In this document: positions 10,189-60,645 of the stretch, one piece after another
Layout of the letters: every line of letters begins with the position of its first letter
Position numbering within the stretch: the stretch's first letter is position 1
Source of the DNA: a virus
Direction: 5' to 3' (one strand)
Virus genome (UHGV): UHGV-0209088
Length of the DNA stretch: 64,000 bases
The notes under the pieces: generated by a model
Database searches by the model: none
Told to the model about the DNA's origin: nothing
The model's input: only the letters and a program-made list of their open reading frames with translations
Made by a program: the position numbers and the translations under genes

Positions 10189-10248
10189 AAAACCCTCTTT
10201 ACATTTTCGCTCTTCCGATCCTTCGACCGGGTGGATTTCCCCGCGATT

Positions 10249-10268
10249 TAGGGCGCAGCTAGGGCGCA
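10249..10268 (+). promoter_or_regulatory. TAGGGCGCA-gc-TAGGGCGCA direct repeat (11-bp register)
   Basis: Exact 9-mer repeated twice, 60 nt upstream of int. Confidence 0.5.
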
Positions 10269-10387
10269 AAATCCCGGGGTGTTGAGCGTTTTTAGAGGAA
10301 AGGCCGTGAATGGGTCAGAGTGTTAAACCATTGAAATCACGTCCAAAAAAGATTTCGCGTGACTTCCCGGTAAAGCGTGGTTTAAGA

Positions 10388-10431
10388 CTTCCAAGCTGAA
10401 TACGGGGGTTCGATTCCCCTCACCCGCTCCA
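10388..10431 (+). other. attP-like core: 44-nt 3' half of a tRNA-Gly(UCC) gene (anticodon loop to CCA) with no 5' half
   Basis: CTTCCAAGCTGAATACGGGGGTTCGATTCCCCTCACCCGCTCCA has the T-arm GGGGG/TTCGATT/CCCCT, acceptor 3' strand plus CCA, and the anticodon loop CUUCCAA (UCC). Very close to E. coli glyT. No complementary 5' acceptor strand (GCGGGTG) lies upstream. Confidence 0.6.
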
Positions 10432-10522
10432 CTTTTTCCTTCAAAAAACACCAACAATCACAGGCACTAACCTGGATCGGCCCGCCCGGTCAACCGCTAC
10501 GTTTGCGCCCTGAATTTTGAGT

Positions 10523-10542
10523 TAGGGCGCAGGTAGGGCGCA
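10523..10542 (+). promoter_or_regulatory. TAGGGCGCA-gg-TAGGGCGCA direct repeat
   Basis: Exact 9-mers; a single extra copy at 10568-10576 and an inverted partial copy at 10504-10512. Confidence 0.5.
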
Positions 10543-10645
10543 AGAAACGACGGGAAGTCCCGTGATTTAGGGCGCAGGCCCGAGAAGAGCCGCGCTTCCG
10601 GGTTCTTCGCGTTCCAGATAGCCTGTAAGGGGAAGTGTAACTCTG

Positions 10646-10663
10646 TTACTCAAATTTGAGCAA
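10646..10663 (-). promoter_or_regulatory. palindrome TTACTCA-AATT-TGAGCAA (family TTRCTCA-N4-TGAGYAA)
   Basis: 18-bp inverted repeat; the minus strand reads TTGCTC-N17-TTACAC, promoter-like, pointing toward att/int. Confidence 0.45.
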
Positions 10664-10711
10664 GTGCTTTTTAAGGGGGCGCGGATCCCTGCGCCCTGCG
10701 GGTTCGATATG

Positions 10712-10743
10712 TGCGCCCTAAAGTGCGCCCTAACTGCGCCCTA
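10712..10743 (-). promoter_or_regulatory. three tandem TGCGCCCTA copies (minus-orientation TAGGGCGCA) at 11-bp spacing
   Basis: 10712-20, 10724-32, 10735-43; the last copy overlaps the TAG stop of the minus-strand gene ending at 10741. Confidence 0.5.
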
Positions 10744-11499
10744 AATCAGTTTGTCGGACTCGGGCGGTGGGTTGGTGCGGGTGAACTCGCGTACCTTGGA
10801 GGCGAACCGCTCAGCTTCGGAGGCCATACCCTCCAGCCCTCGCCAGGTGCCAAGCGCGCCGGTGTGTTGGATGAAGCGAACGGCATCGGCAATCTCTTTG
10901 ATCGCGCCGTAGCCATTCAGGGACAGTCCTGTCTCGCGCTCAAACTCCGCCAGCTTTTCGAGGGCTTCGCTGGACTTGCGGGTGCGCATTTCCACCTCCC
11001 GCTCGACGCGTGCGCTGTACTGCTCATCCAGCTTCTGCCGCTCCCGCTCGACCGCCGCTCGCACCTCATCCTCATCCACGCCGCCAGCGCGGCGCATCAT
11101 CGCGGCCATAAACGCTCTGGTTGTAGGGATGGCATCGAGTTTCGGAGCCGCAACGATCTGGCGGATGCCTCCCGGCGTCACGTCATAATGGCCCCATGTC
11201 GGCGGCAGTTCGCCCGGCTTGATGATGTCCTTCGGTGCCACAATCCACCAACGGTCGCAGTATTGTTGCACCGGTGAGGACTTCGCCGGGTCTTTGAGTT
11301 CGCGCAGCCAGTCCGACCGGCTGACCTTGATTTCGAAACCATGTATCTCCAGCCCGCGCGACGGGTACATGTTCATGGCCACCGCGTCAGCCCAGCGGCG
11401 TTGGGCGGATCCGGTACCGTCGCCAACCTCGAAAAAGATGGCCCATTCAGGGGAGCAGAAGCACGCCCGGAGCAGCGATTTGACCTCGGGCGTTCTCAT
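10741..11499 (-). CDS. MmcB-like PD-(D/E)XK DNA-repair nuclease family protein
   Basis: N-terminus FFEVGDGTG...RRWADAVAMNMYPSRGLEIHGFEIKVSRSDW matches the D...E.K nuclease-core pattern of MmcB-like proteins; coiled-coil C-terminus. Confidence 0.45.
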   Translation of the reverse strand: MRTPEVKSLLRACFCSPEWAIFFEVGDGTGSAQRRWADAVAMNMYPSRGLEIHGFEIKVSRSDWLRELKDPAKSSPVQQYCDRWWIVAPKDIIKPGELPPTWGHYDVTPGGIRQIVAAPKLDAIPTTRAFMAAMMRRAGGVDEDEVRAAVERERQKLDEQYSARVEREVEMRTRKSSEALEKLAEFERETGLSLNGYGAIKEIADAVRFIQHTGALGTWRGLEGMASEAERFASKVREFTRTNPPPESDKLI

Positions 11500-11690
11500 G
11501 ATGATGCCCTCGGCAGCTTCTGCTCAATGAACGCCATCCCGGGAGCCGGGATAACCCGAAGCCGTCCGTCGCCGCTCAGACCCTCAGCCATCTTAATCAG
11601 GATCTGCATGTGCTCCGGGGGGAGCACCACCTGCTTAACCTCGCCGTCGATCTCTGCGTAGATGACGACGCGGCCAATCTCTCCGCTCAT
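11496..11690 (-). CDS. hypothetical protein (64 aa)
   Basis: ORF with start/stop overlap to its neighbours in the leftward operon. Confidence 0.25.
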   Translation of the reverse strand: MSGEIGRVVIYAEIDGEVKQVVLPPEHMQILIKMAEGLSGDGRLRVIPAPGMAFIEQKLPRASS

Positions 11691-11732
11691 AAATTTCCTT
11701 AGCCACTGGTAGGGTGGCGTGTAATTGAATAA

Positions 11733-11963
11733 CTATTTCCGCGCTGCCTGAACTTCGAAGGTGCGCAGCCTGAGCACTTCGGCCTCGAGCGCTTTGATTC
11801 GCGCCTGGGCCTTCTGCATTTCCGTTTTCGGGCGGCGCTGGATTGCCCGCGGGTCGCGGTGGATGATCCCCAGCACCTGCCCTTTGGTGAGCTTGTACTT
11901 GCGGGCCAGCTGCCCGCTCGTGAGCTCTGTGGTGTTCCATTCCCACACGATCTCGTCACGCAT
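11733..11963 (-). CDS. small HTH DNA-binding protein (76 aa)
   Basis: TSGQLARKYKLTKGQVLGIIHR helix-turn-helix-like segment. Confidence 0.3.
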   Translation of the reverse strand: MRDEIVWEWNTTELTSGQLARKYKLTKGQVLGIIHRDPRAIQRRPKTEMQKAQARIKALEAEVLRLRTFEVQAARK

Positions 11964-13395: not shown

Positions 13396-13638
13396 TTACC
13401 TTGCGGCGTTGCCGCGATATTGGCTTGTGCTGTTGACAGTGTTCAGGTTCTCCCACTCGATCAGTTTGTTGAGTGGGTACATGATACTGCCTCCGATCTT
13501 GGTAAAAGCCGGGCCATTACCCTGGCTTCTCCAGTTTGCCAGCGTCCTGGCGCTGATGTTGCCGTCGTAACGGGCCACTACATCAGCAGGCGTCAGGAAC
13601 TGCTTGGCGGGTTGCTGCTTCTTTGCTTCGACATCCAT
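13396..13638 (-). CDS. AlpA/Vis-family HTH protein (excisionase or regulator candidate)
   Basis: LTPADVVARYDGNISARTLANWRSQGNGPAFTKIGGSIMYPLNKLIEWE matches the Phage_AlpA pattern. Confidence 0.5.
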   Translation of the reverse strand: MDVEAKKQQPAKQFLTPADVVARYDGNISARTLANWRSQGNGPAFTKIGGSIMYPLNKLIEWENLNTVNSTSQYRGNAAR

Positions 13639-17891: not shown

Positions 17892-19586
17892 TTGTATATG
17901 ACTTTTGCTCTCCGAGATTATCAGGAAACAGCTGTAGTTGACGTGCGTATGGCGTTTCGTCTGTACCGGCTCATTCTATTGGTGCTGAGTACCGGTGCGG
18001 GCAAAACGGTAATTTTCAGCTACATCGCCCGCAGTTCGGCATCCAAAGGAAAGCGCGTTCTCATCCTCGCGCACCGGGACCAGCTCATTAAGCAGGCCAG
18101 CCGTAAACTCAACGACTACGGCGCGCGTCACGGCATCATTATGGCGGGATATACGCCTGACCACGCCGCCAAAATACAGGTCGCTTCCGTCCAGACGCTG
18201 GTACGCCGCCTCGACAAAATCCGCTTTGAACCAGATCTCATCGTCATTGATGAAGCGCACCTCTCCGCCGCGGTATCCTACCGCAAGATCCTTGAGCGCT
18301 TCCCAAAGGCGAAGGTGCTGGGCGTCACCGGTTCCCCGTGCCGTCTGGACAACAAGCCGCTGGGCAGGGATCACGGCGGCATCTACGAATACATGGTCAC
18401 CGGCATTTCCATCCGCCAGCTCATCGAGCGCGGCTTTCTGGTGCGCCCGGTGGTCTACGCCCCTGCTGAGCAGATCGACCTGTCCGGCATCAAAAAGAGC
18501 ATGGGCGACTACAACACTGAGGAACTGGCCGCGGTGGTCGATAAGCCGAAACTCATCGGTGACGCCGCAGACCAGTATCAGAAAATCTGTCCCGGCAAGC
18601 CTGCCGTCGCCTGGTGCGTCACCGTCCAGCACGCGCAGCACGTAGCCGATGAATTCAACGCCCGCGGCATTACGGCGGTGATGCTCTGCGGCGAGCACGA
18701 TGGTGCCTACCGCGATGATACCCTGCGTAAGCTGGCAACCGGCGAGGTTAAGGTCGTCACGTTCGTAGGCATTCTGGTCGAAGGCGTGGACGTGCCGGAA
18801 ATCGCCGCGATCCTGCTGCTGCGCCCTACCATGTCCCTAGCGTCCTACCTTCAGGTCATCGGACGCGGCCTGCGCCCGGCAGAGGGGAAGGATTGCTGCT
18901 ACGTCCTCGACCATGCCGGGCTGTCATTCAAGCACGGGCTGGCCGACGAGGAACGCGAGTGGTCCCTCGACTGGGGCGAGAAGAAGAAAAAGGGAAAGGC
19001 CAAGGTCAAAGAGGCCACCGTCGATGTCATCCAGTGCCAGAAGTGCTACGCCGTGTTCTCCCCAGACGCTGGCAAGCTGGCGGCCACCAAGCGGACGATG
19101 GCCGACCCTGCGTTCAAGGGTGAATGCTGCTGCCCGAACTGCGGCGAGGAAGTGAAGCGCAAAGGGCGCAAACTGGACCAGCAGGAAGGCGAGCTGCAGG
19201 AAATCACCCCGGAAATGGCTGAGCGCATGCGTAAGCAGAAGAAGCGCGAGGTGAACAGCGCCCGCACGCTGGAAGACCTGCTCCGCATCGCTGCACAGCG
19301 CGGCTACTCATCCGGCTGGGCACATCAGGTTCACGCGTCCCGCACGCGTAAGCTGGAGAAAGAGCAGGCCGCGATCCTGGCTTCTCGTATTGAGAAGATG
19401 ATCACCGTCTTTGAGCGGGTAGGCGTCACGGTAGAGATGCTGGAAGGCTACCTGAATCACGATGTCAAACTGGCGGATGAGAAAGAGCTCGAAACGCTCA
19501 CCACCGTCTACAACAAGATCAAGACCGGCACGCCGGTATCCGAGTTCTTCACCACTGAAGGTGAAGACGACAAACCAGTATTTTAA
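17892..19586 (+). CDS. SF2 DEAD/DEAH-box DNA helicase with a C-terminal zinc ribbon
   Basis: Motif I LSTGAGKT, motif II VIDEAH, CQKC...CPNC zinc ribbon. Confidence 0.7.
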   Translation: MYMTFALRDYQETAVVDVRMAFRLYRLILLVLSTGAGKTVIFSYIARSSASKGKRVLILAHRDQLIKQASRKLNDYGARHGIIMAGYTPDHAAKIQVASVQTLVRRLDKIRFEPDLIVIDEAHLSAAVSYRKILERFPKAKVLGVTGSPCRLDNKPLGRDHGGIYEYMVTGISIRQLIERGFLVRPVVYAPAEQIDLSGIKKSMGDYNTEELAAVVDKPKLIGDAADQYQKICPGKPAVAWCVTVQHAQHVADEFNARGITAVMLCGEHDGAYRDDTLRKLATGEVKVVTFVGILVEGVDVPEIAAILLLRPTMSLASYLQVIGRGLRPAEGKDCCYVLDHAGLSFKHGLADEEREWSLDWGEKKKKGKAKVKEATVDVIQCQKCYAVFSPDAGKLAATKRTMADPAFKGECCCPNCGEEVKRKGRKLDQQEGELQEITPEMAERMRKQKKREVNSARTLEDLLRIAAQRGYSSGWAHQVHASRTRKLEKEQAAILASRIEKMITVFERVGVTVEMLEGYLNHDVKLADEKELETLTTVYNKIKTGTPVSEFFTTEGEDDKPVF

Positions 19587-25581: not shown

Positions 25582-25599
25582 TTACTCAAATATGAGCAA
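25582..25599 (-). promoter_or_regulatory. palindrome TTACTCA-AATA-TGAGCAA
   Basis: On the minus strand this reads TTGCTC-N17-TTATAT, a sigma70-like promoter, immediately after the terminator. Confidence 0.45.
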
Positions 25600-44496: not shown

Positions 44497-44601
44497 CTGC
44501 GTTACACTTCACTTGAGGTAACGGCTATTCCCGCGTTACCGGACCCAGTTCTACTGGCGTGACAAAAACAATCAACCGCGAACCAACGCGGTAGGGATTT
44601 T

Positions 44602-46383
44602 ATGAATATTACATATGGCTCTGTGTGCAGCGGCATCGAAGCTGCATCCATTGCATGGGAGCCGCTGGGGCTGAAGCCAGCGTGGTTTTCCGAGATTGAG
44701 GCTTTTCCGTCTGCTGTTCTGAAGCACCACTGGCCGCACGTCAGCAACCTCGGAGATATGACCAAAATCGCCGCCGCTGTGCGTGCTGGCACCGTTCCTG
44801 CTCCAGACATAGGCGTGGGTGGCACACCTTGTCAGGCATTTTCAGTCGCTGGCGCTCGCGCTGGCCTTTCAGACCCTCGCGGTCAACTCACCATTTCATA
44901 CGTGGAATTAGCCGATGCAATTGACGACACCCGAACCGCAGCCGGAAAACAGCCAGCCATCTTCGTCTGGGAGAACGTGCCCGGAGTCCTCAGCTCCAAA
45001 GACAACGCTTTCGGAGCCTTCCTTGGACTGCTTGCCGGGGAAGACTGTGAGCTACAACCGCCAGGGGGAAAATGGAAGAACGCTGGTTGTGTGCTTGGAC
45101 CCAAAAGAACAATCGCGTGGCGGGTCGTTGATGCCCAATATTTCGGAGTGGCCCAACGACGCCGCCGTGTGTTTGTTGTCGCAAGTGCTCGAACCGATTT
45201 CGATCCCCGAAAAGTATTTTTTGAGTCCGAAGGCGTGCGCCGGGATACTGCGCCGAGCCGAAGCGCGGGGTCGGCAGTTGCCGCCCTTACTGCGAATGGC
45301 GTTGGAACATGTGGTGCGGACGACAACCAAGGACAAGCAGGACACCTGATCGCTGCGTTCGGCGGTGGGAACTGCTCAGGCGCGCTGGATGTAGCGGCCT
45401 GCCTGACAGCGCGCGGCCAGCGCATTGACTTCGAAGTCGAGACCTTTCTCGCCCAGTACAGCAGCACCGGGCAGGGCGCATGGGCTGAGGGCTTTGGCAC
45501 GCTGCGCGCCAGAGAGCAGGAGAGCCACGAGCATCTGGCGGTGATGGCCGTTCACGGCACGCAGGATCCTGACACGCTCAACGAGCTGGCGCACACGCTG
45601 GGGCGCAATCAGGGGCAGGAGAACGCCGTCATCGCGTTCAACAGCAAAGACCACGGGCAGGATGCCGCGGAGGAAATATCCCCGACGCTGCGCTCCGCTG
45701 GTCACGGTACCAGCCACGCGAACGCTGGCGCGCCGCCTGCTGTGGCCTATGGCTTCCAGCCGCGTATTGCCCGCAACGGTCGCGGCGATATGGGCGATGT
45801 TTGCCACGCTCTTACTGCGGAGGCCGGGGAGACCGGGAAGGGGGATTCTGCGCCGCATGTGGCCGTTGCCTTCGCTGAGAACAGCCGCGGCGAAATCCGC
45901 CTTCAGGATGGCGACGGCGGCATCACCGGCCCGCTGTCTACCGGGGGCGGAAAGCCAGGGCAGGGTTATCCGGCAGTGGTCGCCTTTCAGGAACGCGGTC
46001 GCGCTGATGGTCGCACGCTGGAGATTAACGGCGATCTGGCCTACGCGCTGACAGCGCCAAACGGCGGTGGCCGGGCGCAGGAGCGGAACATTGTCGATTT
46101 CCGCACAATGGCCGTGCGTCGCCTGACGCCGCGCGAGTGCGAGCGCCTGCAGGGCTTCCCCGATGACCACACGCTCATCCCATACGGGAAGGCTATCAGG
46201 CCGGAGAAGCTGGAAGCGGACTACGCAAAATATCTGATGCGCGGCGGTCGCATGACCTTTGACGAGTGCTGCCGCGCTGCCGCTGATGGCCCGCGTTACA
46301 AGGCAATCGGCAATTCAATGGCGGTGCCGTGCATGGCTTGGATCGGTCGCCGCATCCTGCAACAGCTCGAGGGGGCTATGTGA
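44602..46383 (+). CDS. DNA cytosine-C5 methyltransferase (Dcm-like) with a long C-terminal extension
   Basis: Motif I region [13 protein letters not shown] motif [15 protein letters not shown] motif FVWENVPG. Confidence 0.8.
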
Positions 46384-47063
46384 AAGATATCTACCAGAAG
46401 ATAAACGGCGATGAGTACCGCGGCGTGTGGGTCGTAGGTGACCTGCACGGCTGCTACACCAACCTGATGAACCGGCTGGACGCAGTCGGTTTCGACCCGG
46501 CGCAGGATCTGCTGGTTTCGGTTGGCGACCTGATTGACCGCGGGGCGGAGAACGTCGAGTGCCTGGACCTGATTAATCAGCCGTGGTTCCGGGCAGTGCG
46601 CGGAAACCATGAGCAGATGATGCTGGACGCGCTGCTCAATGGGGGCAGCTTCGGTCACTGGATGTCGAACGGTGGTGGCTGGTGGCACAGCATGGATTAT
46701 GAGCAGGATATGCGGCTGAAATCCCTGCTCCCCAAGGTAGCTGGTCTGCCGCTGATCATCGAGCTGGAGAAGGGTGGGAAGAAGTTCGTCATCTGCCATG
46801 CTGACTACCCGAAAGAAGAGTACGAATTCGGAAAGCCGGTAGTCGAGCAGGATGTCATCTGGAACCGCGAGCGTGTCAGCACGTCAATGGATCTGGTGGA
46901 TAAGGTGCCGGTGAATGACCTGCTCATTCCTGGCGCTGATCTGTTCATCTTCGGGCATACGCCAGCGCGACAGCCAATGCGTTTCAGCAACCAGCTCTAC
47001 ATCGACACCGGTGCCGTGTTCACCGGCAATCTGACACTGGTCAATCTTGGGGAAGTTCTGTGA
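46380..47063 (+). CDS. Ser/Thr protein phosphatase (lambda-PPase-type metallophosphoesterase)
   Basis: GDLHG...GDLIDRG...RGNHE motifs; GTG start overlaps the Dcm stop (ATGTGA). Confidence 0.75.
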
Positions 47064-47248
47064 AGACGCTGCTGAAGGTGGTTCTGTGGGTGGCGGGGAT
47101 AGCCGCCTTTATCTGGCTGCTTGGGGTTGCCGGTGAACATGATCGCCAAGACTGCGAGGTGCGTATCGCGCAGGAGCTTGGCACAACCGCTCGCTACATC
47201 GACGGCCATTGCATGGTGAAAGGGTACGGGAGGGTGGATGGCCGGTAA
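47060..47248 (+). CDS. small membrane protein (62 aa)
   Basis: One TM helix. Confidence 0.3.
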
Positions 47249-47606
47249 ACGCCTCAACATCATCCTTGAGCCACGGAAGGCCGGGATCTGCCTCAAGGCG
47301 CAGGTGCGCGCAACGCTGGTGGCGCTGGATGGCCGCTGGTTCATCGGTACCAACGGAGTGAGATCACCGCAGGAGGTCTGCCCGCGCGCTGGCTCTCCCC
47401 ACTTCACCGGGTATGAGGCGTGCAAGGGTATCTGCCGTCAGGAGTCGCATGCAGAAGTGAGCGCCATCAATCTGGCGGGAGAAGCCGCCCGCGGCGCCAC
47501 GATCTACCTCGAGGGGCACTTCGCCGCGTGTCCGGATTGCCAGGCGGCAGCCGACGCAGCTGGCATCGCGCAAATCATCATCGGCGCACCGCCAGTGCAA
47601 CAGTAG
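47238..47606 (+). CDS. dCMP/cytidine-deaminase-family zinc-dependent deaminase
   Basis: HAEVSAI zinc-binding motif and ACPDC...AAGIAQII, matching the dCMP-deaminase HAE...PCxxC...AGI pattern. Confidence 0.6.
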   Translation: MAGKRLNIILEPRKAGICLKAQVRATLVALDGRWFIGTNGVRSPQEVCPRAGSPHFTGYEACKGICRQESHAEVSAINLAGEAARGATIYLEGHFAACPDCQAAADAAGIAQIIIGAPPVQQ

Positions 47607-47670
47607 ATCATTTTGGTTGGATCCCGCCTCAATAGACGCTATTGGTGCCTTCCGTAACAGGAGGGCACCT

Positions 47671-48030
47671 ATGAGCCGCGCACTTACCCCTGAAGAACTA
47701 CGCAATAACGTCCTGAACCACGTCCGCCTGATGGTCGAATACTGGGCCACCCTGCCGGGCCTTGATGAGCACGCGCGCTGCGATGGCGTGGCGTTCTCGA
47801 TCCTCACCATGATTGACGGCAGCGCAGACCAGCCGCCGATGGCGCTGGTGGCGCTCTCCAGCGATGAGGACAAGCAGTATTACGTCGAGAAGGGCGAGAA
47901 CTGGGTCGAGCACGGCACCGTCATCAACGATGATGTGATGCTGCACGAGGAATATAACGCGCCTGAGCGCGCCGAATATGCCAAGTCCGTCATGAAATCA
48001 GCTGTGAAAGCTGACGACCAGAAGAACTAA
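47671..48030 (+). CDS. hypothetical protein (119 aa)
   Basis: Start set at the Met with an AGGAGGG Shine-Dalgarno. Confidence 0.35.
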   Translation: MSRALTPEELRNNVLNHVRLMVEYWATLPGLDEHARCDGVAFSILTMIDGSADQPPMALVALSSDEDKQYYVEKGENWVEHGTVINDDVMLHEEYNAPERAEYAKSVMKSAVKADDQKN

Positions 48031-48070
48031 CCTCTATAAATTCAATCACCTGCGCTGCGCCCTGACATTC

Positions 48071-48090
48071 TAGGGCGCAGGTAGGGCGCA
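48071..48090 (+). promoter_or_regulatory. TAGGGCGCA-gg-TAGGGCGCA direct repeat
   Basis: Exact 9-mers. Confidence 0.5.
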
Positions 48091-48104
48091 ATGTTCAATA
48101 TTAC

Positions 48105-48122
48105 TTGCTCAAATATGAGTAA
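48105..48122 (+). promoter_or_regulatory. palindrome TTGCTCA-AATA-TGAGTAA
   Basis: TTGCTC-N17-TTACAT promoter-like; heads a leader homologous to 44479-44601. Confidence 0.45.
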
Positions 48123-48225
48123 TTGAGTTACATTATCGGCTATCCCGTTTATTCACGGGAAACATGGCCCAGCGCTGCTGGCGTGACGACAATCAATAAG
48201 CCGCGAAAAACGCGGCGAGGAATTT

Positions 48226-49476
48226 ATGAATCGATATGAACTACACCTCGGCAACTGCCTTGAGGTGTTGAAGGACTTACCAGACAACTCCGTAGACAGT
48301 ATCGTCACCGACCCGCCATACGGCCTTAGCTTCATGAACAAGAAGTGGGATTATGATGTGCCGAGCGTCGAGGTATGGTCCGAATGCCTGCGAGTTCTGA
48401 AACCTGGCGGTCATTTGCTGTCGTTCGCTGGTACCAGAACTCAGCACAGAATGGCCTGCAACATAGAGGACGCTGGCTTCGAGATCCGCGACATGGTGTC
48501 ATTCCTCTACGACACTAATGAAACCGCTCAGGCACTGATTGAAAGCCTGACACCGGAACAGTTGAAAATGCTGGACGCCACCTTCGGTCGAGACTCTATG
48601 CTTGCATGGGTGTACGGCAGCGGTTTCCCTAAATCTCACAACCTCAAAGATGACTGGACAGGCTGGGGCACCGCCCTGAAACCAGCGCTGGAGCCAATCA
48701 CCGTAGCCCGTAAGCCGTTCAGAGGAACCGTTGCGGCAAACGTGCTGAAGCATGGCACCGGTGCTCTGAATATTGATGTGTGCCGTATCTCAACGGCAGA
48801 TAAGCTCGGTGGTGGCGCGGAAAAGGCGAAGAATGCTGGTCTAATCCATGAAGGGTGGCAGCGTCCGTGGATGAGCGACCCGCAAGCCGCTGAAGCGTAT
48901 GCGAAACGGATAAGAGAAAATGTCGAGAAGAGCGAAGCGCTAGGCCGCTGGCCTGCCAACTTGATTCACGACGGCAGCGATGAGGTTCTTGACCTTTTCC
49001 CTGAGACCAAATCAGGGGTCATGAAAGCAGGAACCCGGCGCGCTGCTCAGGATGAGCCTGGGAGCGTTTGTTACGGTACATACGGCGGCAATGCCGCGAG
49101 CACCGATACCTATGGGGATTCCGGTAGTGCTGCCCGTTTCTTCTACTGCGCGAAAGCTACTCGCAAAGACCGTAACGAGGGAATGCAGGATCCAGGCCCG
49201 CAGTTCGAACACGGCGCGACGCTGCGCAAGGTGGAGAATACCGAAACCAAAGGCAACAACCATCCGACAGTGAAGCCGACAGACCTGATGGCCTATCTAT
49301 GCAGGCTGGTCACGCCTCCTGGCGGAGTGGTGCTCGACCCTTTCATGGGAAGCGGAAGCACTGGAAAGGCGGCAATGCGAGAAGGGTTCCGATTTATCGG
49401 CATTGAGATGGACGCGGACTACCTTGCGATCGCTGAGGCGCGCATTGCGCATGAGGCCGGGAAGGGGGCAGCATGA
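48226..49476 (+). CDS. beta-class amino (N6-A or N4-C) DNA methyltransferase
   Basis: N-terminal motif IV DPPYGL; C-terminal motif I FMGSGSTGKAA. Confidence 0.75.
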   Translation: MNRYELHLGNCLEVLKDLPDNSVDSIVTDPPYGLSFMNKKWDYDVPSVEVWSECLRVLKPGGHLLSFAGTRTQHRMACNIEDAGFEIRDMVSFLYDTNETAQALIESLTPEQLKMLDATFGRDSMLAWVYGSGFPKSHNLKDDWTGWGTALKPALEPITVARKPFRGTVAANVLKHGTGALNIDVCRISTADKLGGGAEKAKNAGLIHEGWQRPWMSDPQAAEAYAKRIRENVEKSEALGRWPANLIHDGSDEVLDLFPETKSGVMKAGTRRAAQDEPGSVCYGTYGGNAASTDTYGDSGSAARFFYCAKATRKDRNEGMQDPGPQFEHGATLRKVENTETKGNNHPTVKPTDLMAYLCRLVTPPGGVVLDPFMGSGSTGKAAMREGFRFIGIEMDADYLAIAEARIAHEAGKGAA

Positions 49477-49958
49477 TGCCCGAGCAACCAAAACGCATCT
49501 CGTATAACGAGAGAGGTGCAACTGCGCCTTACGACCCGCGAGAGGTTTTTCCGCCCGAACTGACTGAATCCAGCAGAAAGATGACTCGCATTCTGGCGCG
49601 CGGCGGGCTGCAAAAACACATCCGCCAGTTCGGCGCTGATGGGCGCTTTACCTTCCACGCCGGGCTGACGGTCGAAGAGGCGGCAGCGCCAGGGATAGTC
49701 GAGGCTGTGAAGCGGTCGACGCTGCATGAGTTCGCCTCCGGTGACCTGGTGGTCATCCGCGGCACCACCGAAGCCGTTGAGATCGAGAAGGTCTGCGGCG
49801 TGTTCCTGATCCTGCGCTCATACGGCGATGGCGGCTGCAACGCGTTCCGCCGCGTGAACCCGCCGCACGGTCGATACAGCTACGGGCGCATTCACATCTA
49901 CAAAGGGCATGTTGAGCCAAACGGGAGGGTCTATGGACCTGGAAAAACACAGAAATAA
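49473..49958 (+). CDS. hypothetical protein (161 aa)
   Basis: ATGA overlap. Confidence 0.35.
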   Translation: MMPEQPKRISYNERGATAPYDPREVFPPELTESSRKMTRILARGGLQKHIRQFGADGRFTFHAGLTVEEAAAPGIVEAVKRSTLHEFASGDLVVIRGTTEAVEIEKVCGVFLILRSYGDGGCNAFRRVNPPHGRYSYGRIHIYKGHVEPNGRVYGPGKTQK

Positions 49959-50208
49959 GAACGGCACCATCAACGGTGTCAGTGCGCTCGGTGAGTTCAC
50001 GGGGCTGGGGCAGGGGGAGGTTCAGGCCATCTTCCAGCAGGTGAAGGAGAACAACGCCAAACTGGAAGCCTGCCAGTACCATGAGTTCGAACTGCACGAG
50101 CAGGGACCAGTAGTCAGCCGATGGAAATATCGTTGCGCCCACTGCGGCGGCATCATCAACGGCAGTGACTACCGCTGGCACGAGCTCGGGCGCAGGGCAA
50201 AGCCGTAA
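49933..50208 (+). CDS. hypothetical protein with a CxxC pair (91 aa from the internal Met)
   Basis: CAHCGG. Confidence 0.3.
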   Translation: MDLEKHRNKNGTINGVSALGEFTGLGQGEVQAIFQQVKENNAKLEACQYHEFELHEQGPVVSRWKYRCAHCGGIINGSDYRWHELGRRAKP

Positions 50209-50211
50209 GGG

Positions 50212-50547
50212 TCAGGCGACGATCCCCCTGACCGTCGCCATCACCTTTACCAGCGTCTCATCATCGACGCGTCCGAGCTGGTCCGCGTGCGATGCCTCAA
50301 TGGTGGCCAGCTTCACGGGCCGTATCATCGAAGGGGCGGGAAGCCCCGCCTTCTCATGACCGAATATAACCACATCATTATCCCACTGCCGGTTCTCGGC
50401 GCTGGTTATCATCGCCACCCAGAGCAGTGAGCTATCCGGTCCTATGCCGCCGCCAGAAACGACCAGAGCTGGCCTGTGCTGGCGGGTATTCTTGTCGGTG
50501 TAGGGGAAAGGTACGCGAACAACATCCCCCTGCTTAAAGGTTGGCAT
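50212..50547 (-). CDS. PemK/MazF-family toxin (type II toxin-antitoxin)
   Basis: MPTFKQGDVVRVPFPYTD...RPALVVS is the MazF/PemK N-terminal signature; overlaps the antitoxin stop by 14 nt. Confidence 0.6.
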   Translation of the reverse strand: MPTFKQGDVVRVPFPYTDKNTRQHRPALVVSGGGIGPDSSLLWVAMITSAENRQWDNDVVIFGHEKAGLPAPSMIRPVKLATIEASHADQLGRVDDETLVKVMATVRGIVA

Positions 50548-50764
50548 AGGCTCTCCGGTCCGCTTCGCTGTCCCACTCACTGAACGTCACGAACGGATCG
50601 TCAGCCTGCTGCGTTACCTCGGCGCGCATGAGCACGACGCGGCCATCTTCAATCTGGTAGGCCAGCTCGTCTCCAGGCTTCAGGTTGAGTGCATTGCGCA
50701 CTGCCTGCGGGATCGTCGTCTGGGCCTTGCTGGTCATCCTGCTGGTTATCACCGGCACCTCCAT
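50534..50764 (-). CDS. AbrB/MazE/SpoVT-type antitoxin
   Basis: TSKAQTTIPQAVRNALNLKPGDELAYQIEDGRVVL swapped-hairpin AbrB motif; start approximate. Confidence 0.5.
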   Translation of the reverse strand: MEVPVITSRMTSKAQTTIPQAVRNALNLKPGDELAYQIEDGRVVLMRAEVTQQADDPFVTFSEWDSEADRRAYANL

Positions 50765-51060
50765 TGCTCCATCTGATGTAAGGAATTTCCTTACCGATCG
50801 CAAGGGGGATGTATGCTGCGCTGCACAACATTGGTTTTCAAGGAGTCAAGCCCGCAATTGTCCGTGATATTGTGCATCGTAGCATGCTGAATTTCGAATC
50901 AGCGATCCTCGTCAACAACTTATCTTAGTCCTGCATACGGGACGGAACAGCCATGCTTGTCCGTATGCTAGCCCTCCCAATCAACGAAATTAGAACACAC
51001 CCATAAGAAGTGCCCATAGGCACCGATTCGATAAGAAAATAATCGCTTCTGGGGCTATTT

Positions 51061-51909
51061 ATGGAAGTAATTACTCGCATCCGCAGTGAGTCCGCGGAGT
51101 TGCGTCGCGTATCCGATCTAAAGGTCTATGAGTTCAAGGGGCATCAGGGAACGGACAATCTTAAATCCAATGATCATTTCGCCGTACTTATGAACAGCGG
51201 CGGTAGACTGAGCGTACAGTGGGAAGGCAATAAAACCTTGTGCAATGAAGTTGACGCAGGGGATGTGATATTCAGCCCGTCAGGCTCGACAATCTCATGC
51301 AATCATCGAGAGGCCGTAAGCAGCTCTTTCATAGCACTGAAACAGTCAGTGTTCGTGAACGCTTCGAAAGATCATGTTGATTACGGTAGTATTGATTTTA
51401 CCGGGCGACACATCAGGCGGCCAGTGACCACGACCATGGCCATGACCCTTCGCAACCTGAGTTCAGTTGAATCCTATCAGGAATGGCCGATGCTGATCGA
51501 GTCTGCCACTCTCGCGTTTGTGATAGCGCTGATTTCTGCGCTGTCTCCTGCTGCTACAAAGGCGTTCCGTGAAAAGCCATACGGGATAGGTGATGTGCGC
51601 AAGAAGCGGGTGGTTGAGTACATCGACGCGCACCTCACCAGAACGATATCCCTGGCTGAACTGGCGTATGAGGTTGGACTGAGCCAGTACCACTTCTCGC
51701 GGCTTTTCAAGAAGCGCTTCGGCATGAGTATCATGGAATACATCAGCATGCGTCGGGTTGAGGTGGCGAAGGAAAAGCTGCAACTGACCGGCGATACGCT
51801 GGCGAGTATCGCCCACGACTGCGGGTTTTGCAGTCAAAGCCACTTCACTGGGGTTTTCGTGAGGATCACCGGCGTTACGCCAGCAGCGTACCGTAATGGC
51901 GCAAAGTAG
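51061..51909 (+). CDS. AraC/XylS-family transcriptional regulator (AT-rich moron)
   Basis: C-terminal dual HTH (LSQYHFSRLFKKRFGMS...IAHDCGFCSQSHFTGVF); gene GC content visibly lower than flanking DNA. Confidence 0.8.
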   Translation: MEVITRIRSESAELRRVSDLKVYEFKGHQGTDNLKSNDHFAVLMNSGGRLSVQWEGNKTLCNEVDAGDVIFSPSGSTISCNHREAVSSSFIALKQSVFVNASKDHVDYGSIDFTGRHIRRPVTTTMAMTLRNLSSVESYQEWPMLIESATLAFVIALISALSPAATKAFREKPYGIGDVRKKRVVEYIDAHLTRTISLAELAYEVGLSQYHFSRLFKKRFGMSIMEYISMRRVEVAKEKLQLTGDTLASIAHDCGFCSQSHFTGVFVRITGVTPAAYRNGAK

Positions 51910-51927
51910 GAGGATCAGCTACTCAGG

Positions 51928-51940
51928 CTGACGCTCTAAA
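51928..51940 (+). repeat. GCTGACGCTCTAA post-stop motif
   Basis: 19 nt after the stop at 51909. Confidence 0.4.
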
Positions 51941-51987
51941 TGTGATCGCTGGTTAAAATCAAGGAATTGCCGTGAGCGCTCTGAAAT

Positions 51988-52007
51988 CAGGGCGCAGATA
52001 GGGCGCA
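51988..52007 (+). promoter_or_regulatory. cAGGGCGCA-ga-TAGGGCGCA direct repeat
   Basis: One mismatch in the first copy. Confidence 0.45.
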
Positions 52008-57485: not shown

Positions 57486-57884
57486 ATGTGGATCATGCTG
57501 AACAATGCTTTCATTTCTGTAGTCGATAAAGCGCCGAACCCTGAACAGCTCGTGGTTCGTGCTCGTGTGGAAGGCCACATCGAGGCGGTATTCCCGCAGG
57601 CTGAGGTCATCCGTGATGCGTCCGGCGACTACCTGTTCCGGGCCTTCATTGACCGCCGTGTTGTGGCGGCTGCGATGCAGCGCGCGGTAATGGACATCGA
57701 CTACCCGAACTTCAAAAACAGCATCAAAGACGACCGCTACCACGATGCCTGTTCCAGCGTCTGGGGTGTGATGTCACGGTTGCAGCCGGTTCGCCCGTAC
57801 TCCGGTCGTCCATCCCGCAACTATGACCTGTTTGGCGCTGGCGGCGCTGGCAAAACTTCAACCCGCGCGAAAAAGGCTCGCTAA
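57486..57884 (+). CDS. hypothetical protein (132 aa)
   Basis: ORF starts right at the terminator's T-tract with no Shine-Dalgarno; start uncertain. Confidence 0.3.
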   Translation: MWIMLNNAFISVVDKAPNPEQLVVRARVEGHIEAVFPQAEVIRDASGDYLFRAFIDRRVVAAAMQRAVMDIDYPNFKNSIKDDRYHDACSSVWGVMSRLQPVRPYSGRPSRNYDLFGAGGAGKTSTRAKKAR

Positions 57885-59632
57885 TGAACGCTGTAGTCCA
57901 GAACCTGCACGGCGAGCTGGTCGATGGCATGGAGTTCTTCGCTCCGGCCTCGACCGACCTGCTGGACAGCCTGCTGGGGCAGTACAAGCAGCTCCGGGCC
58001 GACATCGAAATGATGGCAGGGCTGGTAACCACTCACCACGCGTCAGTTTACCATTTCCTGAACGGGAACAGAGGCGACCGCGACCGCACCCATCGTAGCG
58101 TGGCGGAGATCTTCAAGCTGGAAGGTGCCATCGGCAGCCTGAACGCTGAGTTCTGGTCGAAGGCGCTCAAATTGACCGACGTGTACGAGTACATGCCCAA
58201 CAACCGGCGCGAAGAGTGGAACGAGCAGATCCGCAACCCGCTGGGGGTGAAAGCTCCGCGCATCAGCGATTACGATTTACGCCATGGCGTAGAGCAGAAG
58301 GAATGGACAGTCGCCCCTCTGCCAGATTTCGAGGAAGAGGCGGTGCGTCCTACTATCATGGCGCTGCTCAATGCGCGCCAGCAGTTCTTCTCTGAGCGCG
58401 TTGACGGGATTTTCCGCGCGCTGTCCGGCGAGCATGTGACGAACCGCCCTGAAGGCTTCGGGAAGCGCATGATCCTCGCCCGCGTCTTCAACGAGTGGGG
58501 CAGCACAGACTACAAAATGGCTGGCTACATTCACGATTTGCGCATCGTGATCGCCAAGTTCATGGGCCGCGACGAGCCAAATGGGTGGGCACCGACCGAC
58601 GCCGCTCTGCTGGCAGCACGTCGCCGCCCTGGCGAGTGGTTAACGATTGACGGCGGCGCGCTGCGCATTCGTGGCTATCTGAAGGGTACGGCGCATCTGG
58701 AAGTTCACCCAGAAATGGCTTGGCGTCTTAACTGCATTCTGGCGCAGCTCTACCCGCTGGCGATCCCGCCGCAGTTCCGCCAGAAGCCGAAGCGCAAGCT
58801 CAAAGACTTTGTGATGATGGGCAAGCCGTTGCCGTTCGCGGTGCTGGGAGTGCTCGCAGGGATGAAGGCCGAGAAGCATACGCCATGGCGTGCTGATCGC
58901 TGGGAAGAACCACGCCAGCCTCTCACCACTAACCCGTTCAACCGTCGATTTGAATGGCGTGATGAGGGTAAGGCCGTCCTTTCTCAGGCTGAAAAGGTGC
59001 TGGAGAGTATCGGCGGCGTGAAGGTGATGGCCGGGCCGAAACAGAATATCGCGATCTGGGAGTTCGACTATGAGCCGGGCAGCGTTCTGGACGAGATTAT
59101 CGCGTCTGGCTGCATACCAGACCATCAATCGCACCAGTATTACCCGACGCCTGATGGTCTGGCGGAACTGGCCGAGAGCATTCTCGAAATCGGCCCCGAG
59201 CATAAGTGTCTGGAGCCGAGCGCAGGGCAGGGCGGTCTGGCGAAGTACATGCCAGCCGAGCGCACGACCTGCGTGGAGATCTCCAAGCTGCATTGCAAGG
59301 TGCTGGAGGCGAAGGGCTTCAACGTGCAGCAGGCAGATTTCATCGCGTGGGCGGATACCGTCAAATACCCGATCTTCGATCGCGTTCTGATGAACCCGCC
59401 GTTCTCCGAAGGCCGGGCAAAGGCTCACGTAGAGGCCGCTGCCTCGCTGGTGAAGAAGGGTGGCCGTCTTGTGGCGATCCTGCCGTCAGGGATACGCAAT
59501 ACCGATATCCTGCCGGGCTGGGATGTGAGCTGGACGCAGGTATTTGATAATGAATTCGGCGGCACGTCCGTCTCGGTGGTCATCCTGAAGGCTGACCGTA
59601 AAGCAGATAACCGGAAGGCTTCGGCCCTCTAA
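57884..59632 (+). CDS. large fusion: ~400-aa N-terminal domain of unknown function plus a C-terminal amino (N6-A-type) DNA methyltransferase
   Basis: C-terminus has motif I LEPSAGQGGLAKY and motif IV NPPF (MNPPFSEG). Confidence 0.6.
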   Translation: MNAVVQNLHGELVDGMEFFAPASTDLLDSLLGQYKQLRADIEMMAGLVTTHHASVYHFLNGNRGDRDRTHRSVAEIFKLEGAIGSLNAEFWSKALKLTDVYEYMPNNRREEWNEQIRNPLGVKAPRISDYDLRHGVEQKEWTVAPLPDFEEEAVRPTIMALLNARQQFFSERVDGIFRALSGEHVTNRPEGFGKRMILARVFNEWGSTDYKMAGYIHDLRIVIAKFMGRDEPNGWAPTDAALLAARRRPGEWLTIDGGALRIRGYLKGTAHLEVHPEMAWRLNCILAQLYPLAIPPQFRQKPKRKLKDFVMMGKPLPFAVLGVLAGMKAEKHTPWRADRWEEPRQPLTTNPFNRRFEWRDEGKAVLSQAEKVLESIGGVKVMAGPKQNIAIWEFDYEPGSVLDEIIASGCIPDHQSHQYYPTPDGLAELAESILEIGPEHKCLEPSAGQGGLAKYMPAERTTCVEISKLHCKVLEAKGFNVQQADFIAWADTVKYPIFDRVLMNPPFSEGRAKAHVEAAASLVKKGGRLVAILPSGIRNTDILPGWDVSWTQVFDNEFGGTSVSVVILKADRKADNRKASAL

Positions 59633-59641
59633 GGAATATGT

Positions 59642-60043
59642 GTGAACAATGAAGAACTGGCAGCGCAGGTTTCTGCGCTGCACATCCAGCCGGGCACAGT
59701 GGTGGTTCTGAGCCTGAATCTGGACGCTGATAATTTCGAAGCGGCCAAAGCCATGGCGGAGCAACTGCGCATGGCTATCCCAGAACAAAACAAACTCCTT
59801 GTGCTCCAGCGCCCGGCAGAAATTCAGGCGCTGGATGAAGCACAGATGCGCGAGCTGGGGTGGGTGCGCTGGGAGAAGGTAGAGCCGCTGATCGGGTGCG
59901 CTGAGCTGCTGGCTGACAATCTTCGCCGCGACGCCGAGAACGTGTCTGATGACATGGAAGCGGCTGGAATGGAGCGCCACGCCGATAACATTGATGCTCT
60001 GGTGCGTCAGGTCAAAGGCACCCAGCCGGAGCTGCCGCTATGA
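59642..60043 (+). CDS. hypothetical protein (133 aa, GTG start)
   Basis: AAGGAA Shine-Dalgarno. Confidence 0.3.
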   Translation: MNNEELAAQVSALHIQPGTVVVLSLNLDADNFEAAKAMAEQLRMAIPEQNKLLVLQRPAEIQALDEAQMRELGWVRWEKVEPLIGCAELLADNLRRDAENVSDDMEAAGMERHADNIDALVRQVKGTQPELPL

Positions 60044-60303
60044 GCAAATACGACCGCACCATCATTGGCCGCGATGCCAGAGGCAATCCGGTAGCCGTCA
60101 CGGTCGATGTCTACCGCGTTCTGGACGCGTTCGATGTAACCGACCCGGCATTGCAGCACCTCGCGAAGAAAGCGCTGTGCGCTGGCCTGCGCGGGCATAA
60201 AGACCTGGGTCAGGATCTCAAAGACATCCTGCTGTCTGCTCAGAAGGCACTCGCTTTGCACCTCGACAAGCAGGAGCTGGTGGAGGTGCCCCATGGGGAC
60301 TAA
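60040..60303 (+). CDS. hypothetical protein (87 aa)
   Basis: ATGA overlap. Confidence 0.3.
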   Translation: MSKYDRTIIGRDARGNPVAVTVDVYRVLDAFDVTDPALQHLAKKALCAGLRGHKDLGQDLKDILLSAQKALALHLDKQELVEVPHGD

Positions 60304-60559
60304 AACCATCTGGGACGGCGAGCAGCTGCCGCCGACAGGCTGCGAGGTGCTGATCCACCTGGCGAGCGTGGACAAGTGGGTGCCGTATACCGTGGAAGGC
60401 TTCACTATCAAGAAGCAGCCCGAGGGTTACGACCAGTACACGATCCATGTCACCGTCTATCGGACAGAAGGCGGCAAGAAGATCACCAATTGCCGCCTGC
60501 TGGGGGATATTCGCCCGGTGGACTGGCGGGAAGGGGAAGGGATCAGCTCCCAAGGCTGA
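60293..60559 (+). CDS. hypothetical protein (88 aa)
   Basis: ORF. Confidence 0.3.
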   Translation: MGTKTIWDGEQLPPTGCEVLIHLASVDKWVPYTVEGFTIKKQPEGYDQYTIHVTVYRTEGGKKITNCRLLGDIRPVDWREGEGISSQG

Positions 60560-60615
60560 ATCTGCGCACGAAATCCGCCAGTGCTTTCAATGGCTGGCGG
60601 CACAAATCCACGAGA

Positions 60616-60635
60616 TAGGGCGCTCATAGGGCGCA
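60616..60635 (+). promoter_or_regulatory. TAGGGCGCt-ca-TAGGGCGCA direct repeat
   Basis: Abuts the Shine-Dalgarno of the gene at 60646. Confidence 0.5.
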
Positions 60636-60645
60636 GGAGAAAGGA

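Follow-up and report, generated by a model that had tools for sequence, protein, structure and literature searches.

Putative attL-like integrase modules and independent dyad promoters at gene boundaries of a temperate myovirus

The stretch of DNA analyzed here (the window, 64,000 nucleotides) comes from the virus genome UHGV-0209088 and carries, at a series of gene boundaries, a recurring cassette of 9-bp direct repeats, a 13-bp motif, and an 18-bp palindrome. We propose that this cassette is composed of two independent elements, a putative integrase-recognition module and a set of sigma70-like promoters overlapped by a dyad operator, and give this reading a probability of roughly 0.58. The 9-mers and the 13-mer look like orphan attL-type integrase sites (core plus P' arm) located at the 3' ends of genes. 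A 5+7+5 inverted repeat, (T/A)CAG(C/A)-N7-GCTGA, has the 13-mer as its right half and copies the tRNA-Gly anticodon arm that forms the crossover core of attP, and each module consists of this core mimic, 56 bp, and two tandem arm-type repeats. An initial annotation of the sequence had taken the 9-mers and the 13-mer as a free-standing code read by an activator or repressor, an interpretation that is at odds with the 13-mer being half of an attP-core-like repeat at a fixed distance to the pair.

Repeated motifs in the window

The 9-mer TAGGGCGCA has 19 exact copies in the window, as compared with 0.49 expected, and no shuffled sequence reached 19. The initial annotation had put the number of exact copies at more than 20, which is slightly too high, and had named a shuffled-sequence comparison as a possible refutation, which the motif withstands. 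Head-to-tail pairs on an 11-bp register are present at all eight loci reported earlier, with both copies exact at 10249/10260, 10523/10534, 37484/37495, 44445/44456, and 48071/48082. The pairs at 41325/41336, 51988/51999, and 60616/60627, previously described as exact, have one mismatch in one copy (TAGGGCGCT, CAGGGCGCA, and TAGGGCGCT, respectively), such that 9 of the 12 arm sites in the six modules described below are exact. A minus-strand triplet at 10712–10743 was found as described, its copies at 10712/10724/10735 following registers of 12 and 11. The two single copies noted earlier differ: 10568 is exact, whereas 10504 is CAGGGCGCA on the minus strand and not exact. Further CAGGGCGCA copies at 10690(-) and 48056(-), and exact TAGGGCGCA singles within open reading frames (ORFs) at 18820(-) and 41049(+), had not been listed. 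The latter two, at 18820–18828(-) in the helicase gene and at 41049–41057(+) in the gene upstream of module C2, have neither a partner nor a core and may be chance occurrences or auxiliary sites.

The 13-mer GCTGAYGCTCTAA occurs four times (0.01 expected), at 37423, 41264, 44385, and 51927; all four plus-strand sites had been recognized, two of them (41264 and 51927) with coordinates off by one. The palindrome TTRCTCA-N4-TGAGYAA has six exact copies in the window, as compared with 0 expected, and nine when up to two mismatches are allowed. The exact sites are 10646, 25582, 30376, 34485, 44479, and 48105; the seventh site reported as matching the consensus, 37538, has one mismatch. As for the degenerate copies, 57426 (one mismatch) and 35750 (two mismatches) were recovered, but 39812 was absent from a scan allowing up to two mismatches. 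The full composite of 13-mer, pair, and palindrome is found only at 37423–37555 and 44385–44496. There is no palindrome at 41264 and 51927, and 48071 and 60616 lack the 13-mer but have the underlying core element. An ordered, non-random intergenic system is therefore upheld, but its complete three-part form is restricted to two loci.

Six modules at the 3' ends of genes

The core repeat is located 72–73 bp upstream of the pair in all six pairs outside the attachment (att) site. Its perfect form, TCAGC-N7-GCTGA, occurs only four times in the window (37411, 47998, 51915, and 60543), each exactly 73 bp before a pair, and the other two non-att pairs have ACAGA-N7-GCTGA at -73 and -72. The pattern CAGM-N5-AR-GCTGA has six matches (0.16 expected), all of which are on the plus strand and are module cores. 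The six modules, C1 to C6, are as follows.

C1, 37411–37503, plus strand: core TCAGC-TCTCAAA-GCTGA (37411–37427), consensus box for integration host factor (IHF) at 37453–37465, pair at 37484–37503
C2, 41252–41344, plus strand: core ACAGA-CCCGTAG-GCTGA with the stop codon TAG in its spacer, GC hairpin, pair at 41325–41344
C3, 44373–44464, plus strand: core ACAGA-GTTCTAA-GCTGA, pair at 44445–44464
C4, 47998–48090, plus strand: core TCAGC-TGTGAAA-GCTGA in the 3' end of ORF 47617–48030, pair at 48071–48090
C5, 51915–52007, plus strand: core TCAGC-TACTCAG-GCTGA, IHF-consensus box at 51957–51969, pair at 51988–52007
C6, 60543–60635, plus strand: core TCAGC-TCCCAAG-GCTGA, hairpin, pair at 60616–60635 abutting the next ribosome-binding site (RBS)

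The core element lies no more than ~15 bp from the stop codon of the upstream gene, and the cores of C2 and C6 contain that stop codon; at C6, the TGA of the core terminates ORF 60293–60559. At C2, the ATG of the next gene follows 19 bp downstream, without a promoter. The 56-bp spacer often contains a terminator-like hairpin, which at C3 includes an IHF-consensus box (44415–44427). The IHF consensus WATCAANNNNTTR has four matches in the window, as compared with 0.8 expected, three of which are located 18–19 bp upstream of pairs. We considered the IHF box as a general component of the module and rejected it, as this holds for only three of the six.

The 7-bp spacers of the six cores all differ from one another and from CTTCCAA of attP. 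The modules thus have core-like half-sites (6/6) and the same arm repeats as attP, and an integrase with an arm domain is encoded, but spacer identity with a partner site, which strand exchange requires, is missing. Because no overlap sequence is shared, we call them att-like binding modules and not functional att sites.

The integrase and attP

The integrase gene (int) and attP are located together in the window.

8899–10191, minus strand: P4-type tyrosine integrase with an N-terminal arm-DNA-binding domain (PF13356 Arm-DNA-bind_3, 1.3e-14; PF00589)
10249–10268, plus strand: attP left (P) arm, TAGGGCGCA pair, 58–77 bp upstream of the int start codon
10383–10399, plus strand: attP core TAAGA-CTTCCAA-GCTGA, followed by the 3' part of tRNA-Gly(UCC) to CCA (tRNA identity block 10388–10431; whole entry 10383–10431)
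10504–10576, plus strand: attP right (P') arm, with CAGGGCGCA (minus, 10504), a pair at 10523–10542, and a single copy at 10568–10576
10690–10743, minus strand: CAGGGCGCA and the TAGGGCGCA triplet, at the stop codon of gene 10741–11499

The window integrase is 60–61% identical to that of Pseudomonas phage Jeremy, and its N-terminal domain (N-domain) is 59% identical to that of the integrase of Aeromonas phage ST4. In both phages a pair occupies the same position ahead of int. As the initial annotation stated, 9-mers are located on both sides of the att core and before int (pairs 10249–10268 and 10523–10542); they also flank the core in ST4, Jeremy, and the relative L016. The triplet has a weak core-like element, CTCCGAA-GCTGA, 72 bp upstream within gene 10741–11499. 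The only recognizable promoter upstream of int is the leftward dyad at 10646–10663, which lies beyond the attP core, so that integration would disconnect int from it.

ARAGORN detected no complete tRNA and no tmRNA in the window. The tRNA part of att matches tRNA-Gly genes of Alphaproteobacteria exactly over 43 nt, and among species-representative genomes exact matches occur only in Alphaproteobacteria and a few metagenome-assembled genomes. The anticodon arm of the complete host tRNA-Gly is GCAGC-CTTCCAA-GCTGA. In Microvirga sp. 2YAF29 (L104, NZ_JBFRFB010000015.1), a full tRNA-Gly is joined to a right arm 97% identical to that of the window; since this arm includes the pair and the single 9-mer, we take it to be an integrated junction. 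The phage proteins are up to 80–90% identical to those of Aeromonas phage ST4 though the tRNA-Gly part of att is alphaproteobacterial, and the phage family seems to span bacterial classes. The attP core of ST4 (L017, 32895–33300) has only the tRNA-Lys anticodon loop and one stem, without the 3' half of the tRNA. A complete tRNA-Lys gene adjoins it and may be a substitute for the host tRNA gene disrupted on integration.

Conservation of the modules in relatives

Phages ST4 and Jeremy are syntenic relatives of 90–95 kb. Logan metagenome contigs 100% identical to the window (L208, L218, and L229) and 85–98% related to it (L206, L207, L209, L226–L228, L236, and L237) were also compared. A search for related loci with the integrase alone gave only 2 relatives, and one with the ParB-methyltransferase gave a widespread family with no close relatives. 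Look-ups of exact proteins gave no match.

The module geometry of 72–74 bp is found in 5 of 5 modules of ST4, 7 of 7 of Jeremy, and 17 modules from IMG/VR. It is constant over 35 distinct modules in all, although spacers and flanks diverge. The arm repeat stays T(A/C)GGGCGCA across the module-bearing relatives, and the core types are genome specific: TCAGC/GCTGA in the window, TCWGA/TCWGA in ST4, TCARA/TYTGA in L011, CCTGA/TCAGG in Jeremy, L004/L006, and L015, and CCAGA/TCTGG followed by GGGTCA in L005/L009. In all three genomes for which attP is available, the module core matches that of the genome's own attP. The window has GCTGA and the tRNA-Gly loop CTTCCAA; ST4 has the attP core GAGA-CTTTTAA-TCAGA, with the tRNA-Lys loop CTTTTAA, and the module half-site TCAGA; and Jeremy has CTACGAA-TCTGGGGGTC, with the tRNA-Arg loop CTACGAA, and the module half-site TCWGG. 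Orthologous modules, such as those after the ParB-methyltransferase and after the AraC gene, have different cores in the window, ST4, and Jeremy, and the cores have therefore co-evolved with integration specificity. A free-standing regulatory code made up of the 9-mers and the 13-mer is not supported, because the cores switch to each relative's own tRNA target. Orthologues of C1 are located at 12578 in ST4 and at 69482 in Jeremy. The genuine attP core of ST4 is ~75 bp from its own P' pair, near the module spacing of 72–73 bp.

The difference between TAGGGCGCA in the window and TCGGGCGCA in Jeremy was examined as a clean case of covariation and dropped, as the modules of Jeremy contain both forms. 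Separately, three AT-rich, unrelated IMG/VR contigs (L002, 5750–5830; L007, 4050–4120; L013, 5880–5960) have five to eight tandem copies of the 11-mer TGTAGGGCGCA before a gene. These arrays have the same 9-mer and register, and may reflect coincidence or a related reader domain.

Dyad promoters

The second element is the 18-bp dyad, which is found at the following sites.

10634–10663, minus strand: dyad promoter leading leftward through attP to int; TTGCTCAAATTTGAGTAA, 5 nt, TTACAC
25582–25599, minus strand: dyad promoter, exact palindrome, preceded by a terminator; no integrase module
30376–30393, minus strand: dyad promoter, -10 TAGTAT; no integrase module
34485–34502, minus strand: dyad promoter, -10 TATAGT; no integrase module
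37538–37555, plus strand: dyad with one mismatch before a TGnTAAGAT extended -10; conserved in ST4, L236, and L237
44479–44496, plus strand: dyad promoter for a C5 methyltransferase; TTGCTCATATTTGAGTAA, then TTACAC
48105–48122, plus strand: dyad promoter for an N6/N4 methyltransferase; leader paralogous to the post-C3 leader

Read in the direction of the downstream gene, each of the six exact copies is TTGCTCA-N4-TGAGTAA and has a -10-like hexamer 17 bp after TTGCTC. These hexamers (TTATAT, TAGTAT, TATAGT, TTACAC, or TTACAT over the six sites) all face the next gene. A generic promoter scan of 36–53 kb had missed the dyad promoters, because their -10 hexamers have A at position 2 only if the spacer is taken as 18 bp. 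The earlier suggestion of a dimeric operator overlapping sigma70-like promoters is plausible on these grounds, with the TTGCTC -35 lying within the dyad in 6 of 6 cases. The dyad is kept at orthologous promoters in ST4, L236, and L237, and takes the form TTGATCA-N4-TGATCAA in Jeremy and L021, including within their att regions. It is presumably the operator of a dimeric regulator conserved in the family. No S24-type CI repressor was found by Pfam among the ~90 ORFs scanned. A dyad of the CRP/FNR or LexA type was rejected on half-site polarity and sequence, and not by a database search.

Four dyads have no adjoining integrase module (25582, 30376, 34485, and 10646, the last located by the minus-strand triplet with its weak core-like element only), and modules C2, C5, and C6 have no dyad. 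The two elements thus occur independently of each other.

The leaders after the C3 and C4 dyads (44497–44601 and 48123–48225) are paralogous, with ~71% identity over ~160 bp. Both have GGCGTGAC and then a CCGCG...CGCGG hairpin ahead of ATGAAT, and the methyltransferase genes downstream of them are unrelated. The same leader precedes a third methylase in ST4, and in L236 it is retained and the ORF is replaced exactly at the ATG.

Mosaicism and recombination junctions

The accessory block in which the modules reside is mosaic, with homology often breaking off at module edges: 52010 (3 nt past the C5 pair), 60635 (the end of the C6 pair), and 51916 and 37408 (left core edges). Other breakpoints fall at module edges or at ordinary gene boundaries, and no module-bounded insertion or deletion distinguishes L004 from L006. 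A further breakpoint, 10744, is seen in L207 and L209 and coincides with the triplet's outer edge; at this edge, a 252-aa gene is swapped for a 243-aa one in relatives.

Contig L237 lacks window positions 44465–51988 (7.5 kb, from C3 to C5) and has a single hybrid module instead. The hybrid consists of the C3 core and spacer and a C3-type first 9-mer, followed by the inter-repeat dinucleotide of C5 and C5 downstream sequence. The crossover is inside the arm repeats and not in the core spacer. Integrase-catalyzed exchange at the core had been our leading idea and was given up once the L237 junction was mapped to the arm repeats. In L228, C6-type modules are in tandem and the second copy has no core. 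The identical 20-bp pairs serve as short-homology joints for the gain and loss of accessory modules, which is a by-product.

The slot directly after the C5 pair is variable, with a 191-aa gene in L226 (5207–5900) and a PIN toxin-antitoxin pair in L227 (5060–5915). L227 lacks the PemK/MazE pair present upstream of AraC in the window (50212–50803), and toxin-antitoxin modules are exchanged around C5. The right edge of this slot in L226 and L227 (~5880–5900) is the motif GTCGTGAY, which in the window is located at 6209, 42183, 52023, and 61277, all on the plus strand and at least three of them intergenic and upstream of genes. The motif is not enriched in the window (4 copies versus 3.9 expected). 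Its CGTGAY part recurs beside the att cores of the window, ST4, and Jeremy. Another variable slot, between the RecD-like helicase gene and the triplet-adjacent gene (window 11496–11963), is occupied by alternative small genes in the close relatives L206, L207, and L209, encoding 76 + 64 aa, 205 aa, or 76 + 205 aa.

The reader of the repeats and alternative explanations

Candidate readers of the 9-mers were compared in relatives fetched through the gene for an HTH_17 protein (13396–13638), a winged-helix, excisionase-like protein with a helix-turn-helix (HTH). Integrase N-domains with at least 58% identity to that of the window accompany GGGC(G/C)C repeats, and more distant N-domains accompany GGACACC, TGTGCGC, GTGGGCA, or AAGTGAC repeats; L037, which has no N-domain match, has the repeat GTGCCACC. 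N-domain residue Q54 (in QRK) does not vary among the GGGCGC-arm genomes that show an N-domain match (14 loci and the window), and the five genomes with other repeats have A or S at this position. The predicted recognition helix of the HTH_17 protein, (I/V)(S/T)xRTLANWR, is invariant in 21 relatives that have eight unrelated att-flanking repeat types, and overall HTH_17 identity does not follow repeat type. This comparison favors the arm-binding domain of the integrase, a protein absent from the candidates of the initial annotation, as the probable 9-mer reader. It runs counter to the HTH_17 protein, which was among those candidates, as the helix is constant across eight arm repeats and Q54 of the integrase sorts the GGGCGC-arm genomes. 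The HTH_17 protein would, in the alternative, bind head-to-tail one helical turn apart, like P2 Cox, 186 Apl, RdfS, and BldC, and would serve as a directionality factor at attP while regulating transcription at other sites. We keep this alternative in consideration, at a low probability, because BldC/Xis-like winged HTH (wHTH) proteins bind 9-bp direct repeats head-to-tail, with BldC-type proteins doing so as dimers one DNA turn apart, and because recombination directionality factors (RDFs) bind attP as well as promoters (PMC11963761). The protein matches Pfam HTH_17, its gene is kept in ST4 (72%) and Jeremy (65%), and in small relatives the gene directly adjoins attP and int. Besides the unchanged helix, the repeats flank the core on both sides, and an RDF leaves unexplained the fixed coupling of pair to core that follows the tRNA target. 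The original proposal, in which another small HTH or Cys-rich protein (17608, 11733, 30400, 32822, 36144, or 36680), or AraC, reads the repeats as promoter-upstream sites, appears only about half as probable. The C3 and C4 pairs do end 14 bp ahead of the -35, where a class-I-like site would be placed, and ST4 and Jeremy have kept the 36144, 36680, and 17608 proteins as well as the AraC regulator. However, the 30400, 32822, and 11733 proteins have no homologue in these two phages, where the repeats persist; in about one third of the modules, the next start codon follows the pair with no promoter in between; and the att-flanking copies and the tRNA-matched core at a fixed distance go unexplained.

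Other explanations concern what the modules do. They could be active recombination sites at which the integrase, with IHF, recombines attL-like sites, with integron-like excision as circles and re-insertion. Lambda Int can recombine attL with attL. The complete core and arm architecture, the uniform direct orientation, and the location at gene 3' ends fit this idea, as do the mosaic accessory block with modules at many joints and the conservation of spacer positions 6–7 (A-R) beside the right half-site. In addition, Jeremy has ~7 kb between AraC and the ADP-ribosyltransferase homologue that is bounded and subdivided by modules, at a place where the window and ST4 have a single module. Nevertheless, the 7-bp spacers differ among the six window modules and between ST4 and Jeremy orthologues, and overlap identity is usually needed, as it is for most tyrosine recombinases (PMC2817482). 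In the one clean recent event (L237), the C3 core and spacer are retained and the switch lies in the arm repeats, the remaining breakpoints lie at module edges or ordinary gene boundaries, the L228 tandem copy arose through exchange in the spacer without the core, and no attR-like partner (a pair upstream of a core) was seen. We consider active sites as improbable as reading by the HTH_17 protein. That the modules are scars of earlier integration or duplication, or selfish repeats, without function and tolerated between genes, would account for the degenerate copies (the ST4 repeats, the coreless second L228 copy, and the minus-strand triplet), but not readily for the exactness of 9 of the 12 arm sites, for the 72–74 bp spacing retained in 35 modules despite diverged spacers and flanks, or for cores that co-evolved with three tRNA targets at orthologous positions; we regard this as quite unlikely. 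It is very unlikely indeed that the core acts as RNA, as a tRNA-anticodon-arm-like hairpin at mRNA 3' ends (in processing, stability, or boxA/boxB-like antitermination) to which the 9-mers are unrelated. A 5-bp stem and 7-nt loop do occur at stop codons, with loop position 1 being Y and positions 6–7 being A-R as in anticodon loops, and YGCTCTAA, which we take to be boxA-like, was counted in favor of RNA. GCTCTAA is, however, restricted to the lineage of the window, and a search of the window against Rfam 15 with gathering thresholds returned no match. Among 175 core-arm positions, 156 are complementary and 18 are mismatches, with only one G-T, and ST4 has TCWGA half-sites on both sides with the central position often unpaired; mismatches that are not G-T and TCWGA on both sides point to protein half-site recognition and not to an RNA stem. 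The stem also follows each phage's integrase target, which is unexpected for an RNA role.

Several observations weigh against binding of the modules by the integrase. The IHF-consensus box is present in three of the six window modules and missing from the other three and from most relatives. The minus-strand triplet and the second L228 module copy have no good core. In the attP of both the window and Jeremy, the P' pair is ~128 bp from the core and not 61 bp, so that the module does not literally reproduce the resident att arm. The assignment of the integrase as reader is an inference from position, geometry, and covariation, which is confounded by phylogeny. Modules are located both upstream of promoters and within operons, which fits a roadblock but proves nothing.

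Genomic context

Pfam scans, which covered ~90 ORFs of the window, identify it as a temperate myovirus genome and not a host region. Positions 1–8600 have genes for baseplate, tail fibre, and lysis. A leftward recombination operon, from 17416 down to 10741, encodes a PDDEXK exonuclease, an SMC-like ATPase, the HTH_17 protein, an HU-like protein, and the RecD-like helicase, and a rightward replication operon begins at 17608. These are followed by a leftward gene block (35382 down to 24180) and a rightward block (36144 to past 60640). The rightward block encodes five DNA methyltransferases, an Acb2/Tad1-like protein, a phosphoesterase, a deaminase, the PemK/MazE toxin-antitoxin pair, the AraC regulator, a NUDIX protein, and a 1355-aa protein without a Pfam match, whose ST4 homologue is annotated as an ADP-ribosyltransferase. 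This is an accessory, anti-defence block; a late-gene block is excluded by its methyltransferase, Acb2/Tad1-like, toxin-antitoxin, and AraC content.

The divergent blocks are separated by 761 bp of non-coding DNA (35383–36143) with an AT-rich (TAA)n center and 17 of the window's 52 GGAACT/AGTTCC hexamers. The orthologous ST4 region has dozens of GGTAGC/GCTACC instead. The stretch ends in a conserved promoter-like TTGCTCATTTTTGTTTTATACT ahead of gene 36144. It looks like an iteron-type origin or a binding array, in which the repeat may have changed together with its reader.

Discussion

Our sequence comparisons suggest a mechanism in which the N-terminal arm domain of the integrase would bind the pair and its C-terminal domains the core, with the spacer bent with the aid of IHF or the phage HU-like protein. 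The outcome would be a stable, attL-like complex of protein and DNA exactly between the stop codon and the next promoter or RBS. The integrase could then double as a regulator, a roadblock or insulator within the long transcription unit that runs rightward. Such a role would extend the arm-site autoregulation of P4-family integrases at their own promoters. IntS of ICEMlSym-R7A, with putative attP arm sites P1–P5, is thought to autoregulate PintS negatively (PMC11963761). We prefer a binding or architectural role because the L237 joint is in the arm repeats, the spacers differ, and about one third of the modules are promoterless before an RBS; that the role is regulatory is something we infer.

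The modules resemble known systems in part. Lambda attL (B-O-P') is composed of a core, the H' IHF site, and tandem P'1–P'3 arm sites, and is bound in an Int/IHF intasome. The modules likewise have an inverted-repeat core around 7 bp, a bendable spacer (IHF consensus in 3/6), and tandem arm repeats on a 10–11 bp register, and the gene for an integrase that has its own arm-binding domain lies nearby. Unlike attL, they are present in at least six copies within the phage genome away from attP and were not made by integration at a host site; their spacers all differ, they are located at gene 3' ends, and they have neither attR-type partners nor core recombination in the events seen. P4 Int autoregulates through arm sites at its own promoter. 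The arm pair upstream of int (58–77 bp in the window) is similar to that arrangement and to that of IntS (PMC11963761), but those sites are confined to the integrase's own promoter within attP, whereas the window sites have their own cores and are spread over ~23 kb of accessory genes.

Direct repeats spaced by about one helical turn, in attP and at six other loci, together with an encoded HTH_17 protein, recall the Cox, Apl, RdfS, and BldC systems. Boxes for P2 Cox and 186 Apl are short direct repeats in attP and at promoters. In contrast to these, the window repeats are on both arms and tied to a core, and the repeat varies while the HTH_17 helix is constant. As in integron attC cassettes, imperfect palindromic recombinase sites lie at ORF 3' ends in uniform orientation within a variable accessory array. 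However, the integrase here, by its Pfam match to an arm domain (PF13356), is of the P4 type and not IntI, the sites are double-stranded core and arm sites with simple 5+7+5 palindromes, many window units have their own promoters, and the exchange observed was at the arm repeats. In the PeSL cassettes of T4-type phages and the boundary sequences of lambdoid phages, an intergenic promoter and stem-loop flank variable genes and serve as recombination joints. The modules similarly provide short-homology joints (the 7.5-kb C3/C5 indel and the tandem C6 copies), but the conserved unit is an att-like integrase module, whereas PeSL and boundary sequences are promoters or terminators without a link to recombinase sites. 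The operators of P1 C1 and the stoperators of Cluster A mycobacteriophages are single operators reused at many sites and are asymmetric. The dyad TTGCTCA-N4-TGAGTAA likewise recurs throughout the genome of a temperate phage, oriented with transcription; unlike the P1 and stoperator sites, it is a dyad that overlaps the -35 and the promoter spacer. Nothing relevant emerged from searches of the literature on the 9-mer, phages ST4 and Dolphis, and dispersed arm-type sites, and no description was found in the literature searched of tRNA-target-matched integrase modules dispersed at gene boundaries.

Arm- and core-type sites are textbook parts of attP; what appears to be new, judging from the literature searched, is their fixed-geometry copies across an accessory region, co-evolving with the tRNA target in several lineages. 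As a tentative generalization, which we consider possible and not yet probable, orphan attL-type sites in ~90-kb temperate myoviruses of alpha- and gammaproteobacterial hosts may let the integrase organize, insulate, or silence the anti-defence and methylase block, and may act as standardized joints for gene swaps between phages, forming an integrase-centered cassette system, carried by phages, that co-evolves with the tRNA target. The combination of a core mimicking the tRNA target, 56 bp, and an arm pair provides a signature for finding further cases. If the integrase binds these modules, it would have a second, genome-wide role for a recombinase in the gene regulation or genome architecture of temperate phages, and the variable anti-defence and methyltransferase genes would sit in a standardized docking framework.

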